From: Squalus acanthias
Taxonomy: Eukaryota
NCBI GenBank assembly: GCA_030390025.1
Contig: CM059430.1
Span: 72,974,001-73,038,000 of the forward strand
Reading direction: 5' to 3'
DNA length: 64,000 nucleotides
This document shows, in pieces, positions 9,161-57,812 of this stretch. The position numbers and the translations under genes are program-made. The notes below the pieces were generated by a model that searched no databases, was not told the DNA's origin, and saw only the letters and a list, made by a program, of their open reading frames with translations. Each line of letters opens with the position of its first letter. Position 1 is the first letter of the stretch.

Positions 9161-9464
9161 TTTCCTCCCTAAATATTAATATTTAATTGAACGTTAATTT
9201 TATTATTGTTCGTGTGATGTGGTAATTTGATAAAATTAAATAAAATCCTTAAATAAAATCTAAAATAAGACAACTTTGCAATTCAATACTTTTATTTAAT
9301 ACTTTATAAAACCGTAGCAAATATTCACGTGTTGCAGTGCTTTTCAAACCAAGTCAGTGCCTAACATTCCGGGGACATATTAATAAATACTTTTTTCAAT
9401 ACAGGGCAAAAAGTTTGATTCAGAGAGAGACACGGTCATTGAAGAGGCTACTATCGCACTACTT

Positions 9465-10165
9465 TCCTGATATGGACCCCATCAGCCTACAATCCTTATA
9501 TGGACCCCATCACCCTACAATACTTATATGGACCACATCACCCCACAATCCTTATATGAACCCTATCACCAAACAATCCTTATATGGACCCCATCAACCT
9601 ACCATACCAACATGGAAGCCATCACCCTACAATCCATATATGGACCTCATCACACTACAATCCTTATATGGACCCCAGCACCCTACAGTATTTATATGGA
9701 TCACATCACCCTACATTACTGATAAGGACCCCATAAACCTACAATCCTTATATGGACCCCATCACCGTACAACACTTATATGGAACCCATCGCCCTACAT
9801 TCCTGATAGGGTCCCATCAACCTACATACCTGATATGGACCCCATCACAATGCATTGCAGATATGGACCCCATCACCTTTCATTCCTGATTTGGTCTCCA
9901 TCAGCCTACAATGCTTTTAAGGATCCCATCTCCCTACATTCCTGATAGGGATCCCATCACCCTACATTCCTGATATGGACCCCATCACCCTACATTGCAG
10001 ATATGGACCCCATCACCTTACATTCCTGATATGGTCTCCCTTCAATCTACAATCCTTGTATGGACCCCATCACTCTACATTCCTGATATGGGCACCATCA
10101 TCCTACAATTCTGATATGGCGCCCCTTGGCTCTGTATTCCTGTTATGGGCCACAATCACAGCATT
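9465..10165. repeat. 28-bp minisatellite, ~25 degenerate copies
   Basis: Consensus about CCTTATATGGACCCCATCACCCTACAAT in direct tandem. Confidence 0.95.
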
Positions 10166-10382
10166 CATAATAAGGAGTCTATCAATTTTATGATCATCAA
10201 CGAATTCCTTTCAGTCAATCATATTGTGTTAGACAAGGTGTGTTAGACAATTACAGATTGGTGAACGGCGACTTGCACAGAGCAAAATACAGTGGCTCCT
10301 GGTTCTATATAATGCAAAATGAACGTCTCGACATCTACTTCTTTAACCCCATCAGCACAGCCCTTGCACTGCTTCCGTGATA

Positions 10383-10453
10383 TTAACTCGTTGCTTTTCC
10401 AGAGTTGGTTAAATCGGGTGCAACTGATGTCAGGTTCTCAGCTGGTTTTATGG
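10383..10453 (-). other. Candidate terminal exon of gene A (now 3' UTR; vestigial cytoplasmic coding frame)
   Basis: Strong acceptor tctttcttctttttaatag| at 10454; phase-1 frame reads AIKPAENLTSVAPDLTNSGKATS*; possible AATAAA at 9296-9291. Confidence 0.45.
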
Positions 10454-10739
10454 CTATTAAAAAGAAGAAAGATTTCAGAATGAACCGGTGCTTAAATAAA
10501 GTGAGCACTAAATCCCACAGCAGTATTTCCAGTTAGTTTGAATTAATCTGCTGGCGAGACTCATATTGCCAGGATACAGTTTTCTGGATCAAACCAGGGA
10601 TTAAGAGATCTGGTTTCATTGATGTTTGATTTTCCACTATGTAAAGAAAAAATCTCCCGTAAAAGTGATCACATTAACAGTTCTGAAATATGCACAACAG
10701 CTACAAATAGAAGAAGCTGCATCAGAGGCTGGAAATAGA

Positions 10740-13700
10740 GTAAACGAACAACTCTCGAGGGTAAATATCGCTGGATTATTGCCCGAGACACGTGCAAATT
10801 GGCATAGAAGCAGACAGATCAGGAAGATTAACACGTGGCTAAAGGGCTGGTGTGGAAAGAGGGGTTCCTTTTCATGGGGCACTGGCACCAGTTCTGGGAC
10901 AGGAAGGAGCTGTAGCGATGGGACGGGCTCCACCTGAACGGTGATGGGACCCGTGTCCTCACGGATAGGGTAAATAGGGAGGTGGCAAAGGCTTTAAACT
11001 AGTTAGATTGGGGGATGGATCTACAAGAAACGTAACCAGCCTAAATATAAACAAAACAGGAAAAGAGAGCATAGAAAACAATATATATGGGAGAACATTG
11101 ATTGCAAGCGAATAAATAGACCTATAGACCATTAGTCTAAAAAGATAGCTAACCATAAAGAGAGAGGAAATCCGATTAAAAATGAGTTAAACTGTCTGTA
11201 CAGCAATGCACACATTGTCCGTAATAAAACAGGGGAGCGGGAGGCAATCATGCGTTGCGAGGAACCAGACATAGTCGGGATTACTGACACATGGCTACAG
11301 AAAAATCAGGACTGGGAATTAAAAATGGAAGGGTATAACATATTTAGCAATCATGGGGAGGTAAAAAGGGAAAAAAGGGAAGGTGGAGAAGCTGTTCTTA
11401 TTAGGGATAACATAATGGCAGTAGAGAAAATTATGCAAGATAAAAATAGAAACCGTATGGATAGAGATAAAAGATAATAAATGATCAATCACGCTAATAG
11501 GCGTACTCTACAGAGCACCTAATAGTGGAAGGTAGGTGGAGGAAGGAATATGCAGACAAATTAGAGTAATGAGAAAAAATCATAGAATAATAATCATGGG
11601 GGATTTCCACTACCCCGATATTAATTGGACAGAAGAGGTAGCTAAAGGGGATAAGGGACTGGAATTCCTTTAATGTGTACAGGACTCCTTTCTAACTCGA
11701 TATTTAAAAAGCCCGACAAGGGAGGATTCGCTATTGGATCTTGCAAAGCGGAATGAACCAGAGCAGATAAGAAAAGTAAAAGTAAGGGAACATATAGGCA
11801 ATAGTGACCATAATAATAATACGCTTTAAGATGAAAATTGAGAAGAGCATAAGTATGACGAAAACCATCTTAACAGATTGGAGAAAAGTTGATTTTGAGA
11901 GGCTGAGAATAGAACTTGGGAAAAAAATGGACAACAATATTGGCAAACAACGATGTAGACCGGCAATGGGAAACATTTAAAACGTTGTTCAACAGAGTGC
12001 TTTAGAAATATATTCCGCTAAAAAGAAAGAACAAACAAAATAGTAATGAGACTCCAATGATGAATAAAGCCATAAGGGGACAATTGATGGTAAGGAAAGA
12101 TTGGAATAGGGCCATTAAAGGATAGAAAGGATAATACCACAGATAACGATAGAGAGATGGCAGAAATATTAAATAATTATTTTGCTTCAGTATTTACCAG
12201 GGAGATAGAACAGGTGGACATGACATTGGATGATGAGATAAGTGCATTTAACATAAAAAGAGGGGATATATTATATAAATTTGTCAAACTCAAAGAGGGT
12301 AAAACCCCTGATGCGGATGGATTGCATCCACGCATTTTAAAAGAATCTAGGGATAGCAGAGGCATTACTGGGCATATTTTGTAATTCGTTCGAAAAAGTT
12401 GCAGTGCCAGAGGACTGGTGGATAGCTAACGAAATACCGATATTTAAGAAGGTTGATAGAACATGTCCAGGCAATTATAGGCCAGTCAGCTTAACATTAG
12501 TTGTCGGAAAAATAATGCAAACCCTAATGAAGGAGAAAATAGAAGTACGTCTAAAAATCGCAAATATAATAATGAATAGTCAGCATGGATTTCAAAAGGG
12601 AAAGCCTTGCTTGACCAACTTTATTGAATTTTTTGAATAGGTAACAGCGAGAGCAGCTAAAGGTAATGCAGTAGATGTAATTTATCTGGATTTTCAAAAG
12701 GCCTTCGATAAAGTACACCATAATAGACGAATCAATAAGTTCAGAGAATGCGGAGTCGGGAGACAAGTAGCAGAATGGATTGCTGGCCGGCTTCAGGACG
12801 GAAAGCAGAGAGTAGGAGTAAAGGGTAGCTATTCACAGTGGCAGAAGGTGGGTAGTGGTGTTCCACAAGGATCAGTGCTGGGACCATTGCTGTTCACAAC
12901 TTACATTAACGATTTAGAATTCAGAATCAAAAACACAAATTCTAAATTTGCGGATGCCACCAAATTGCGGTGTGGGGGGGGGGGGGGGGGGCAGGGTGGA
13001 TACTCAATACTGAGGAGGACAGCAACAAATTACAGGAGTACGTCAATAAACTTGCAGAATGTGTATATAATTGGCAATTGAAGTTCAACACGGATAATTG
13101 CATGGTATTACATTTTGGGTAAGAATAGGGAGGTCACTTATTACTTGGAGGGTGCGAGTCTAGGTGGGGTAGAGGAACAAAGGGATCTCGGAGTGCAAAT
13201 ACACAAATCATAAAAAGTTGCATCACAGGTTAGCAAGGCCATAAAAAAAACAAACCAAGCACGAGGGTTTATTTCTAGAGTTATAGAATTGAAAAGTAGC
13301 GAAGTTAGCTAAACCTGTATCGAAACTTGTTTAGACCACACTTAGAGTACTGCATAAAGTTCTGGTCGCCTTATTATAAAAATGATATAGAGGAACTGGA
13401 GAAGGTGCAGAGAAGATTTTCAAGGATGATACCAGAAATGGGAGTGTATACATATCCGGAAAGGATGAAAAGGCTGGGTCTCTTTTCTCTTGAAAAAAGA
13501 AGGCTGAGCGGTGACCTAATAGAGGGCTTTAAAATTATGAAAGCTTTTGATAGAGTGGATACAGAGAGAGTTTGTCCAATTGTGGGAAAGAGCATAACTG
13601 GTAGCCATCAACATAAGATATTCACCAAGAAATCCAATAGAGAATTCAGGAGAAACTTCCTTACCCAGAGATTGGTGAGAATGTGGAACTCGCTACCACA

Positions 13701-13900
13701 GGGAGTAGTTGAAGCGAATAGTATAGATGCATTTAAGGGGAGGCTCGACAAGCATATGTGGAAAAAGGGAATAGAGGGTTCTGCTGATAGATTTAGACGA
13801 GGAAAGACGGGAGGAGGCTCGTGTGGAGCATAAACGCCGGCATGGCATGGTTGGGCCGAATGGCCTGTTTCTGTGCCATATATCCTATGTAATCCTATGT
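10740..13900 (+). mobile_element. Near-complete decayed CR1 LINE (ORF1 end, APE and RT, 3' tail)
   Basis: [44 protein letters not shown]; tail atcctatgtaatcctatgtaa. Confidence 0.92.
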
Positions 13901-13919
13901 AACTGCTCAGAAACACAGG

Positions 13920-14220
13920 ATTACATCTGTAGCTCATCGGGGCACGGTTTATACTGAGCCATATGGCAGGAAGGTACCAGATTGCATTACCATTCTGCTG
14001 AGGTGGCTGAAGACAGCCGGAGCAGGTGTGTACAATTGGCCCTGGTGGCCCTGAGATGAGGAAGGACAGCAATCAATCGCTTCCCTTGTCCTGAGTGTGG
14101 CCACTGTTAAGTGCATACTTTTCATAGGGTTAAGATCAGTTATTGCTCATCTGTGACGTACAAAGTTGCTTGACCCTCGGGCCGTCCCTGTCTGGCATCA
14201 CCCATGAAGAATGCACATTT
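13920..14220 (+). mobile_element. Possible old degenerate tRNA-derived SINE
   Basis: Head tgtagctcatcgg resembles an A box; body tacaattggccctggtggccctgag resembles repeats I associate with shark genomes; too decayed to classify. Confidence 0.3.
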
Positions 14221-14241
14221 AGTTAGAATGCAGATCCTTAC

Positions 14242-14288
14242 CAGCGCCTTGAATCAGGATTGCAGCAATTGGCAGATCTTGTTGAAGT
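14242..14288 (-). other. Candidate 47-nt exon of gene A downstream of the TM exon (non-coding because of the upstream TAA)
   Basis: tttcgactag| acceptor and CTG|GTAAG donor; enters in phase 2 (matching the TM exon end), exits in phase 1 (matching exon 10453); open frame RLQQDLPIAAILIQGA. Confidence 0.5.
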
Positions 14289-14639
14289 CTAGTCGAAACA
14301 CTCAACACACACATACACATTAACAGACAGACGCACACTCACACATATAATCCTACACAAATGTATTCCTGGTCTGACGGAGTTTAATTAATTTGTTCAA
14401 TAAAAACAAATATAAACTTTGAAATAAAAATTATTTCTCTGGTAACGGCCCGATCAGCACATGAGCATTTCAAACATAATGAGGGGTCATCGGGTATCAG
14501 AGCTTTTGTTAAGCGTACGTGTTGGGTGATTATATTCAGAACAGCAAACCAGCGAAAATTCAAACTCTGGAAATGAACTGCGTTCAGAAAATTATCGAGA
14601 ATGTTATTGAAATTCCTGACTCAGTGACAGACAGTGAAT

Positions 14640-15015
14640 TGGTTCTGGCTAAACATCAGTGAGTGATTGAGCGTAGGAAGTGGGCGTGTAATATTGAATC
14701 ATAGATGCTTATGGCCACACATCAGTGAGTAAGAGTTGGATGGAGTGTGTAAAGCAATTGACAGATGCGTGTGTGTGTGTAATGACAGTGAGACTTTGCT
14801 GTGGATATCGTACAGTGAGAAAGATGTTGTCGGTGTGTAACAGTTAGTAAGAGATTATTCTGAGTGTATAACAGTCAGTGAGATGTGTGTGAGCGTGTGT
14901 GTGTGTGTAACAGGGAATATGAGATGAGTGTGGATGTGTAACACTGAGTGAGAGTAGGGTTTCGGTGGAAACAATGAGTGAGAGATGGATTTGAGTGTAT
15001 AACAGCGAGAGACAT
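14640..15015. repeat. Degenerate GT/GA-rich low-complexity tandem region
   Basis: Recurrent gtgtaacagtgagtgagagatg-like units and (TG)n runs. Confidence 0.6.
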
Positions 15016-15019
15016 TTTC

Positions 15020-16463
15020 ACACTCCAGTATGATTTACTCTTCCTGCTTTGAAACCTTCGATGAGTATGTAAGTGGAGAATGAATGTGGAGCAGCAATGT
15101 ACCGGGAAGCAATCTGTCCCGACATGTTTAAATCCCTCCAGTCAGGTTTCCACCCCTGCCACACTAACGAAACGGCTCTCATCAAAGTCACAAATGACAT
15201 CCTTTGTGACTATGACAAAGGTGAACTATCCCTCATCGTCCTTCTCGAATAGTCTGCAGCGTTTGACATGTTTGACGACTCCATATACCTCCAGCGCCTC
15301 TCCACCATCGTCCAGCTGGGTGGGACTACACTCGCCTGGTTCCATTCCTATCTTTCTAATCGTAGCCAGAGAAACACCTTCAATGGCTTATCTTCCACCT
15401 GTCGCATCGTTACCTCTGGTGTCCCCCAAAGATCTATCGTTGGCCCCCCTCCTATTTCTCATCTACATGCTTCCACTTGGCGACATCATCCGAAAACACA
15501 GCATTAGTTTCCACATGTACGCTGACGACACCCAGCTCTAGCTCACCACCGATTCTCTTGACCCCTTACGGTCTCTAAATAGTCAGACTTCTTGTCCAAC
15601 ATCCAGTACTGGATGAGCATAAATTTTCTCCAATTAAATCTTGGGAAGACTGAAGCCATTGTTTTCGGTCCCCGCCACAAACTCCACAACTCTTCCTAAC
15701 ATCTGCTTGAGACTGAACCGCACTGTTTGCAACCTTAGTGTCGTATTTGACCCTGAAATGAGCTTCTGATCAGTTAAACGCGGCCTAACTAAGACCGCCT
15801 ATTTCCATCTCCATAACATCGCCCGTCTCCACCGCTGCCTCAGCTCATCCACTGCTGAACCCTCATCCATGCCTTTGTTACCTCTAGACTTGACTATTCA
15901 AATGCACTTCTGGCTGGCCTTCCACGTTCCACCCTATGTCATGTTGAGGTCATCCAAAACTCTGCTGCCCGTGTCCTAACTCGCACCAATTCCCGTTCAC
16001 CCATCACCCCTGTACTCACTGGCCTACATTGGTCCCCGGTTAAGCAATGTCTCAATTTCAAAAGTCTCATTCTTGCATTCAAATCCGTCCATGGCCTCGC
16101 TCCTCCCTATCTCTGTAATTCCTCCAGTCCTGCAACCCCCCGAGATAGCTGCGTTCCTCTAATTCTGCCCTCTAGAACATCTCTGATTATAACAGCTCAA
16201 GCATTGGTGGCCGTGCCATCAATTGCCTAGGCATTAAACTCTTGAATTCACTCAATAATCCTCTCTGCGTCTCTACCCTCTTTCCTCCTTTAAGACTCTC
16301 TTTAAGACCTACCTCTTTGACTAAACTTTTGCTCAGGTTCATTAATTTTTCATTATGTAGCGCGGTGTAAATTTTTTGTCTTATAATACTACTGTGAAGC
16401 TCCTTGTGACGTTTTACTATGTCAAAGGCGCTATATAAATACAAGTTGTTGTTGCTGCTGTTG
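15020..16463 (+). mobile_element. 5'-truncated L2 LINE
   Basis: [48 protein letters not shown]; 3' end ggcgctatataaatacaagttgttg. Confidence 0.9.
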
Positions 16464-16565
16464 ACATCACAAGTCACAAAAGAAGGATTCGATAATTTTG
16501 TTTGCTGTGTCCTATAACTTTCAACCCGCGACGATAATCTGAATCAAGAAATCAATGTCTTACCT

Positions 16566-16678
16566 TTAAAACGGGACTGATTTCAAATTATCCACAATGA
16601 GTGTGGTCCCCACTAGAATTACTATTAAACCCAACATGAAACGGCACAGGTTGATGGTTTGGAATCGGTCAGGAGAGG
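16566..16678 (-). CDS. Gene A exon 4: transmembrane segment and short tail (exon extends to 16564)
   Basis: ttgctacccaccag| acceptor; phase-1 frame ASPDRFQTINLCRFMLGLIVILVGTTLIVDNLKSVPF*; AG|GTAAG donor; 115 nt and colinear with the gene B TM exon. Confidence 0.85.
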
Positions 16679-24385: not shown

Positions 24386-24691
24386 CCAAATTATAGAAAG
24401 TGTAGCTGACATTGGCTGGAGTCTGGAGAGAGACATGAGACACTTGACAGGTGTAAACCGTCCCGCTCTCCACAGGCTCTGCATCATTCAGGTAGCTAGA
24501 AGCCTCATACAGTCCCGTTGGGTTCGGCCGTTTGATTGGTTCCATCCCGGACCCAATTACTGCTCCATTTTTGTACCAAGTGATTTTCAGATCATCCGGG
24601 AAAAATGCATTCGTTTTACAAACGAGAGTCAGGGGAACCACTGATCCACTCTCATACCGTATGGGGATCAGTTGGAGAGGAGTCGGAGCGT
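24386..24691 (-). CDS. Gene A exon 3: Ig C1-set domain
   Basis: ttatttttccag| acceptor and G|GTAAG donor, 306 nt, phase 1/1; DAPTPLQL...LTLVCKTNAFFPDDLKITWYKNG...YTCQVSHVSLQTP has the C1 hallmarks (C, FxP, W, YxCxVxH). Confidence 0.95.
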
Positions 24692-25959: not shown

Positions 25960-26280
25960 CATATACAAGTAGTTCTATGCCGCATCCGTCAACAAACCCG
26001 AATCTCCTCCAATTAAATCTGCAGCGATAGACGCCAGAGTCATTGACACTCACATTCTGAAGATGCAGATAAAATGTTCCATTTTGTAAAATATGCGATT
26101 CGGTGCGATTGTCGGAGGTTATTGCTACAGTTGAATTGGAACCTTCCTTCCTCCAATAAACAGTTAAATTCTCGTTCGTCATAAAGCCAGTTAATTTTCC
26201 TCGTAAGGTAACATTCCCGCCTCTGTTCACCGCAACAGAATTAGGGAAGTGAGTGATAGTCGGAGGAACATCTTGGGAAG
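25960..26280 (-). CDS. Gene A exon 2: Ig V-set domain with J-like G-strand
   Basis: gtattcccggcag| acceptor and G|GTAAGT donor, 321 nt, phase 1/1; GNVTLRG, VYWRK, LHLQNVSVNDSGVYRC, DGCGIELLV. Confidence 0.93.
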
Positions 26281-26463: not shown

Positions 26464-26530
26464 CTGTGCAGAAAATCCCCAGCGTGGCACAATACAGAAA
26501 TACGATATTCCGAACCAGAACTAAACCCAT
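26464..26530 (-). CDS. Gene A exon 1: signal peptide
   Basis: ATG at 26530, MGLVLVRNIVFLYCATLGIFCT, CAG|GTATT phase-1 donor; 183-nt intron to the V exon. Confidence 0.85.
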
Positions 26531-56005: not shown

Positions 56006-56120
56006 CTGCAGAAGTTATCTGGTTTAATGTGGTTGAGGATGATCATCATTAGTAGAATAATTACCAATATCCCCACGCTGGATCGATAAATCAGGTGGAA
56101 TGGGAAGACAGCGTGATAAC
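56006..56120 (-). CDS. Gene B transmembrane exon
   Basis: ccttttccag| acceptor and CAG|GTAAG donor, 115 nt, phase 1/2; GYHAVFPFHLIYRSSVGILVIILLMMIILNHIKPDNFC. Confidence 0.88.
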
Positions 56121-57515: not shown

Positions 57516-57812
57516 CATCTTTGTAGCTGGTGTAGATGACACTGGCTGGAATTAGCAGAGAAACATGCGACACTTCACAGGTATAAAGTACCCCGCTCTG
57601 GACAGGATGTGTCTCTTCTAAAGAGCTGGAAACTTCATACAGTCCCTCCTCATTTAAATGTTGTACCGTTCCAAATCCAGACATAAGTTCGAATACCATC
57701 TTTATGCCAAGTGAGTTTAAAGTCCTTCGGGTAAAATCCGGCCGTTCTGCACTGGAGGTTGAGAAAAGAAGGCGAAACTCCTTCAGATGCTTTGGGGAGA
57801 ATCGTCAGTGGA
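57516..57812 (-). pseudogene. Gene B Ig C1-set exon, disrupted; first ~10 nt and acceptor lie in the gap
   Basis: LNLQCRTAGFYPKDFKLTWHKDG, then one extra base near 57694, then FELMSG...YTCEVSHVSL; expected donor reads G|ATATT. Confidence 0.8.

Follow-up and report, generated by a model that had tools for sequence, protein, structure and literature searches.

Does gene A, a receptor-type gene in the genome of Squalus acanthias, carry behind its own stop codon the remains of an inhibitory tail that its ancestor once used? The question is raised by a window of 64 kb (contig CM059430.1, positions 72,974,001 to 73,038,000), the whole stretch of DNA analysed here, in which two V-C1-transmembrane (TM) genes, A and B, lie on the minus strand. 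The stop codon of gene A follows directly upon the membrane anchor, and an exon that begins farther downstream, at position 10453 of the window, resembles the exons that encode ITIMs (immunoreceptor tyrosine-based inhibitory motifs) within related genes. Judged from the sequence, we consider it probable (roughly 0.7) that gene A is an intact short-tailed V-C1 gene with a TM Arg, likely an activating member of a paired-receptor family, and that the exon at 10453 would be the relic of a tyrosine-motif exon lying after the stop.

Gene A and the arginine-bearing membrane exon

Gene A comprises a leader exon (26464..26530, 67 nt, phase 1), a V exon (25960..26280), a C1 exon (24386..24691) and a TM exon (16564..16678, 115 nt, phase 1 to 2), all on the minus strand, which join through canonical splice sites into a single frame of 268 amino acids (aa) with one stop. 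The TM exon displays Arg at its codon 12 (16643-16641) and ends TAA AG/GTAAGA, with the TAA at 16568-16566 and the donor intact. The C1 domain matches immunoglobulin constant domains, with UrIg2 as the top PDB match, and its closest public homologues come from sharks, a skate and a chimaera; public homologues are filed under inconsistent database names (SHPS-1-like, tapasin-like, MHC-like, Ig-light-chain-like). At the DNA level the C1 exon is 85.6% identical to that of the ITIM-bearing gene L074/L075. For the V domain, no longer homologue was found at E<=0.001 among 163 candidates. Two related V exons (L089:9015-9335 and L090:3434-3754) appear to be without both canonical Cys, and both gene A and L090 carry one additional Cys in V, within its J-like GCG motif.

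The C1 of gene A has at least 123 genome matches, 120 of them on the same contig (150 of 580 candidates scored, hence a lower bound), and a TM exon was called in 85 of the 91 loci examined. The intact long-tailed genes of this family display a TM exon of 3n nucleotides (phase 1 to 1), followed by a spacer exon of 44 or 41 nt (phase 1 to 0) and by tyrosine-motif exons in phase 0, the last of which often carries three Tyr. The tails of the public homologues P0001, P0002 and P0005 are of the same exon type. A literature search, made mostly without subscription journals, found no description of this family.

In the TM tree of the 85 genes, the exons of 20 genes, hereafter the Arg clade, form one side of a single branch (97/87) and require 1 change. 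The clade consists of 17 exons of the shifted, 115-nt type and three 114-nt exons, with Arg at codon 12 in 19 of the 20. Since the 114-nt exons (L117, L141 and L147) are nested among those of 115 nt, they have likely lost one base secondarily. These 20 genes need 14 changes on the C1 tree, at least nine of which are forced by the starred branches, and their grouping as a single clade, defined on the TM tree, is rejected by the approximately unbiased test (p-AU 4e-8). An intact Tyr exon is found in none of the 20 Arg-clade genes and in 39 of the 65 others, within the DNA examined (median about 8 kb in both groups). Nearly identical C1 domains stand on opposite tails (L003g versus L074/75, 93.5%; L004g versus L096, 95.4%), as do the Heptranchias proteins P0016 and P0024, which are identical at 203 of 218 positions. 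A profile of the Arg-clade TM exons retrieved five proteins at E<=0.001, four of them V-C1 or C1 proteins from Heptranchias, Carcharodon and two Chiloscyllium species and the fifth with a Tyr-rich tail. Heptranchias, Chiloscyllium and Carcharodon belong to different shark orders, and thus the Arg cassette spans shark orders.

Outside the Arg clade, AGA occupies TM codon 12 in 16 of the 65 genes, distributed over four lineages, where most relatives have Gly. Fourteen of these genes could be scored for their tails, with 11 broken and three relic Tyr exons and none intact; among the 30 scoreable genes without Arg at codon 12, intact Tyr exons are retained in 26 and broken or relic in four. An inhibitory-to-activating switch has likely occurred several times in this family of more than 100 genes. 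Ten genes on C6 at 61.9-62.7 Mb (L109, L113, L118, L122, L123, L125, L130, L134, L140 and L149) carry Arg at codon 12, many of them together with a TM Asp, and have a stop directly before the first ITIM Tyr; their sequences suggest a likely younger, independent switch. Gly-to-Arg changes at codon 12 are also seen in three further lineages (L128; L145, L148, L163 and L169; L165), whose scoreable tails are broken or relic.

Several observations speak against an activating role for gene A or limit the case for it. The Arg is placed at the outer edge of the TM segment, the V domain is without its first canonical Cys (TLRGKL), the TM tree was midpoint-rooted on 169 columns, 21 of the 65 non-clade genes could not be scored, and the association between Arg and tail state comes down to four independent pairs, in the same direction in nearly all pairings (p=0.125). 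In addition, one gene (L090:3434 to L091:4300) combines Arg at TM codon 13 with two ITIM exons, although its C1 contains a TAA; this C1 is about 97% identical to the C1 of two short-tailed genes, and a dual function is possible from its sequence. The coexistence of ITIM exons with an Arg one codon later would suit a gene A that serves as a non-signalling decoy or ligand, its tail lost and its outer-edge Arg recruiting no adaptor, as would the label NCR3 ligand 1-like given by the source to the homologue P0010. We regard such a role as rather unlikely, because Arg at codon 12 is kept in all but one of the clade members and in other sharks, and AGA reappears in four lineages outside the clade, where all 14 scoreable genes have tails that are broken or relic. 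Less still is to be said for gene A as a dying copy in which stop and relic are plain decay. The missing Cys of V and the broken state of neighbouring genes (gene B, and L002g with its C1 split over two frames) would fit this explanation, as would the relic frame, which at 67-70% identity to L004g and L007g is no better conserved than the flanking DNA (71-82%). In contrast, the four exons retain canonical splice sites and an open frame, and the TM peptide is identical to that of Heptranchias P0016 at 27 of 36 positions and ends at the same residue, leaving little room for a pseudogene.

The stop codon and the middle stretch

An initial annotation of the window had noted that the TAA of gene A sits at the codon where gene B has TGC, 2 nt before an intact donor, and the comparison of the two TM exons (16678-16564 and 56120-56006) bears this out. 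The difference had been taken as a truncation specific to gene A, in which a recent TGC-to-TAA change cut a long-tailed ITIM gene whose tail ran through a 47-nt exon into the exon at 10453. Spliced in silico (16564>14288 and 14242>10453), the sequence does yield the peptide then proposed, with fitting phases and an open frame, and 14288-14242 does lie between AG and GT. However, the stop is shared. TAA is present in seven of the 17 115-nt TM exons and TGC in two; TAA is also seen in five of the seven TM exons closest to gene A, and in the sevengill shark Heptranchias, whose sequences are database gene models, P0016 and P0017 (XP_067853509 and XP_067853510) end at the last residue of gene A. 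A third Heptranchias model, P0025 (XP_067853493), has Leu at the stop codon position and reads into a 24-aa tail with KLAAAAPDF, identical at 19 of 24 positions to the tail given by a direct splice of the L004g TM exon to its relic exon. Since the read-through tails of P0025 and L004g are Tyr-less, the loss of the Tyr likely took place in a tail that was still being read, and read without the middle stretch. The earlier view of the stop as the event that removed the ITIM thus finds no support. The suggested inhibitory-to-activating conversion is seen in the family, but the history of gene A differs from the one proposed in its shared stop and in a Tyr likely lost before that stop.

The middle stretch (14242..14288, minus strand) is likely a cryptic pseudo-exon of 47 nt and not a family spacer exon. 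Its acceptor scores -3.2 on the family matrix (family median 11.4), with 101 of the 317 AG sites of the intron as good, and its donor is fair, with four of 326 GT sites equally good. Of the 11 pseudo-exons obtained with a cut-off equal to the score of the stretch itself, it is the sole stop-free candidate of 3n+2 length. Among the paralogues, both splice sites are lost in L002g, the acceptor is lost and the donor retained in L003g, and the stretch is absent from L004g and L007g. A spacer profile built from 40 exons matched, at E<10, neither the middle stretch nor any of the DNA that follows the 115-nt TM exons, although it also finds no spacer in the L090/L091 clade and is hence not exhaustive. 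The fitting phase of the gene A relic hinges on a 1-nt difference common to L003g only, and intact long-tailed genes follow the phases 1, 0 and 0. With the membership of the 47-nt exon in the ancestral tail unsupported in this way, with the stop shared and with gene B itself broken, a recent cut of a tail made of these two exons is a very improbable history for gene A.

The TM exon of gene B (56006..56120, minus strand) falls in the same TM clade as that of gene A, measures 115 nt, carries Arg at codon 12 and ends TGC AG/GTAAGA. Judged against L004g, its C1 region (57518..57691, minus strand) displays an extra base near 57691 and a donor GT read as AT near 57518. These lesions suggest that gene B is likely a pseudogene, or else an assembly error, and because of them it is a poor guide to the ancestor; its TGC at the position of the gene A stop looks derived. 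In Chiloscyllium punctatum, two models (P0013 and P0014) of one gene-B-type gene with a TM Arg end differently, one of them with VGYDAL, which fits the ITIM consensus. As to the origin of the TAA, the donor is preceded by T-AAA-G in 33 of 63 3n exons, which makes it plausible that the stop was an automatic product of a +1 shift. Against this, the deep branches of the Arg clade carry GAA or CAA. The TAA may have come with the frameshift or later, and the fact that either order is possible is a further point to be held against our account.

The exon at 10453 and a proposed order of events

Exon comparison identifies the exon at 10453 as a relic of the tyrosine-motif exon of the family. A DNA profile of 31 intact ITIM exons found its top match in the entire 64 kb at 10444-10387 (E=0.0033), with the Tyr codon falling on TCA. 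In the reverse search, a profile of four relic exons gave 11 non-self matches at E<2 in 970 kb, and all 11 fell on intact ITIM exons, which occupy about 0.8% of the bases searched. The best pairwise scores lay above the maximum of 200 shuffles in each of the three relics tested. A second profile, of 48 exons, was run over 140 kb downstream of the 20 Arg-clade TM exons and detected relics in the distant gene L097 (9e-5), L007g (1.4e-4) and L004g (0.004), with nothing at E<1 on the opposite strand of the same 140 kb. The acceptor of the exon is present in gene A and kept in all four copies. The earlier proposal that NLTSVAPDL is homologous to a tyrosine-motif exon, with Ser at the Tyr position, is thus upheld by the profiles and the reverse search, and the chimaera protein P0005 reads KLTYVAPDL at this site. 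An early reading in which the Tyr-less paralogues refuted an ITIM ancestry was dropped, since public long-tailed homologues bear tyrosine tails.

The 5' part of the relic (10383..10453, minus strand) contains the Tyr-position codon TCA at 10427-10425 and reaches a TAA at 10385-10383. Farther on, the alignment gives moderate support to likely relics of the second and third Tyr codons of a terminal exon (10309..10359, minus strand), namely TGT at 10359-10357 and TAT at 10311-10309, the third position reading LHYIEP versus AVYTEV. The two positions are 16 codons apart, the same spacing as in many intact terminal exons. TVFCSV, once suggested to be a decayed TxYxxV, is present in another frame at 10293-10276, but its derivation from such a motif finds no support, since the second and third Tyr positions align upstream and place it at or beyond the old stop.

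The remaining 3' untranslated region (UTR) would extend over 9199..10382 (minus strand), the first polyadenylation-like hexamers below the exon lying at 9300 and 9204. A tandem array of units of about 28 nt (window 9300-10130), downstream of the relic exon and common to L003g, would fall within it. Repeat insertions at 10750-13900 and 15125-16463, which include reverse-transcriptase-like fragments and are absent from L003g, have expanded the intron between the TM exon and the last exon of gene A from about 1.7 kb to 6.1 kb. In L097, a relic ITIM exon about 2.1 kb past the TM donor has His in place of Tyr and retains the original acceptor in phase 0; spliced directly to the TM exon, it would be read out of frame and give a short tail.

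The identification of the relic also has to answer several unfavourable results. Gene A alone is borderline, with E=0.33 in the second profile and no detection by a profile restricted to terminal exons; a protein profile ranks it third at E=2.3, and its peptide exceeds shuffles against two of nine long-tailed proteins only. For this reason the call for gene A draws on the exons of L004g and L007g, to which its own is clearly orthologous. The site does not follow the canonical ITIM, (I/V/L/S)xYxx(L/V), since Ser takes the place of the Tyr and is followed three residues on by Pro; since Pro at Tyr+3 is common to L004g, L007g and P0025 and to the Tyr-bearing P0005 and P0018, the ancestral site was perhaps YxxP and not a canonical ITIM. 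No relic was seen in 16 of the 20 Arg-clade genes within the DNA examined. A chance likeness to ITIM exons, which the weak score of gene A alone would allow, is considered refuted by the reverse search, the shuffles and the P0025 tail.

We infer the following order of events. In an old inhibitory gene, codon 12 of the TM exon would have become Arg and a base would have been added at the end of this exon, the added base turning the splice phase from 1 to 2 and thereby putting the downstream ITIM exons out of frame. In the gene A subclade, the last exon would have taken a new acceptor and been joined directly to the TM exon, to give a 24-aa tail with its Tyr replaced. Through a TAA in the final codon of the TM exon, this tail would then have been removed as well, and in the lineage of gene A and L003 the relic would later have been shifted again by a 1-nt difference. 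The TM cassette was likely then combined with many ectodomains through recombination or gene conversion. The zone of escape from nonsense-mediated decay in human transcripts is placed at 50-55 nt before the last junction in the accessible part of PMC12668785; as the stop of gene A lies 2 nt before its last junction (49 nt with the middle stretch), its mRNA would likely escape. The likely reason for the relic's persistence is that it furnishes the last exon and the 3' UTR. If expressed, gene A would signal through an adaptor of the FcR-gamma or CD3-zeta type, whose TM Asp would pair with the TM Arg of the receptor, by analogy with receptors that bind an activating adaptor through a basic TM residue (PMC2213150 and PMC3210942, accessible parts). 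The genome has two zeta/gamma-type adaptor exons with a TM Asp.

Relation to known paired receptors

By analogy, the shark family would work like the KIR, Ly49, PIR and SIRP pairs. Related ectodomains are found on opposite tails, the long-tailed members bearing ITIMs without a TM charge and the short-tailed members a basic TM residue. The SIRP family (SIRP-alpha, SIRP-beta1) has a V-C1-C1 ectodomain and ITIM-bearing and short-tailed pairs, SIRP-beta1 with a TM Lys, and its synteny is with NSFL1C and PDYN. The shark genes resemble it in joining V to C1, in their ITIM/short-tailed pairs and in the name SHPS-1-like given to several homologues. In contrast, gene A and the full-length public homologues have one C1 and not two, and the TM residue is Arg and not Lys. 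SIRP was not among the V-domain matches of gene A. In lower-bound searches, SEP-domain matches fell on C8 and C11 and one opioid-family match on C9, with none on C6, and no SEP-domain gene was found on the contig of gene A; a synteny of the SIRP type did not emerge from these searches.

Activating KIR and Ly49 receptors combine a charged TM residue with ITIM loss, and their signalling exons form one clade with scattered ectodomains, spread by recombination (Abi-Rached and Parham 2005, PMC2213150, accessible part). The same accessible text describes rat Ly49s3 and macaque KIR3DH, in which charge came first and ITIM loss followed, by frameshift in the latter, and gives the age of the switches as about 13.5-18 and as much as 31 million years (PMC2213150). 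The shark family is similar in its TM charge, its ITIM loss, its TM cassette of one clade and its scattered C1 domains, and differs in its V-C1 ectodomain and in an Arg near the outer TM edge in place of Lys. It also stands apart from these dates in a cassette common to Heptranchias, Chiloscyllium and Carcharodon. KLRC, KLRI and PIR are paired opposing receptors with homogenised ligand-binding domains, and KLRI2 combines a TM Arg with the lack of an ITIM (Fossum et al. 2011, PMC3210942, accessible part). The near-identical shark ectodomains on opposite tails parallel these, in another fold and another lineage. Genes of the PRARP, UrIg, UrIg2, NKp30 and B7-H6 type encode V in one exon that ends in a J-like GxG, with C1 coming next (PMC10751288 and PMC12227049, accessible parts). 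Gene A shares with such non-rearranging VJ-C1 genes its single-exon V, its J-like end and its C1, for which UrIg2 is the top match as noted above. Unlike the shark family, UrIg2 has nine C1 domains, and ITIMs go unmentioned in the accessible text of PMC10751288 and PMC12227049.

Taken by itself, the relic exon is nothing unusual and belongs to a known kind, and the interest of gene A lies in the family that surrounds it. A wider proposal, which we hold tentatively, is that the more than 100 non-rearranging VJ-C1 genes of cartilaginous fish may constitute an undescribed paired-receptor complex. One Arg TM cassette would have originated in a splice-phase shift of 1 nt, prior to the divergence of the main shark lineages, and would have been kept and grafted on at least nine ectodomain lineages. 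Gly-to-Arg at codon 12 would have arisen on at least four further occasions, with ITIM decay following in the cases that can be scored. One genome would then contain every stage of the switch, including its oldest known case. The inhibitory-to-activating switch has so far been known from young mammalian families. The shark family appears to pair an old, conserved activating cassette with several younger, independent switches at the same codon, and lets one ask if the loss of the ITIM is preceded by the charge and if an activating receptor is necessarily short-lived. It would also represent a large candidate natural killer or myeloid receptor complex in cartilaginous fish.

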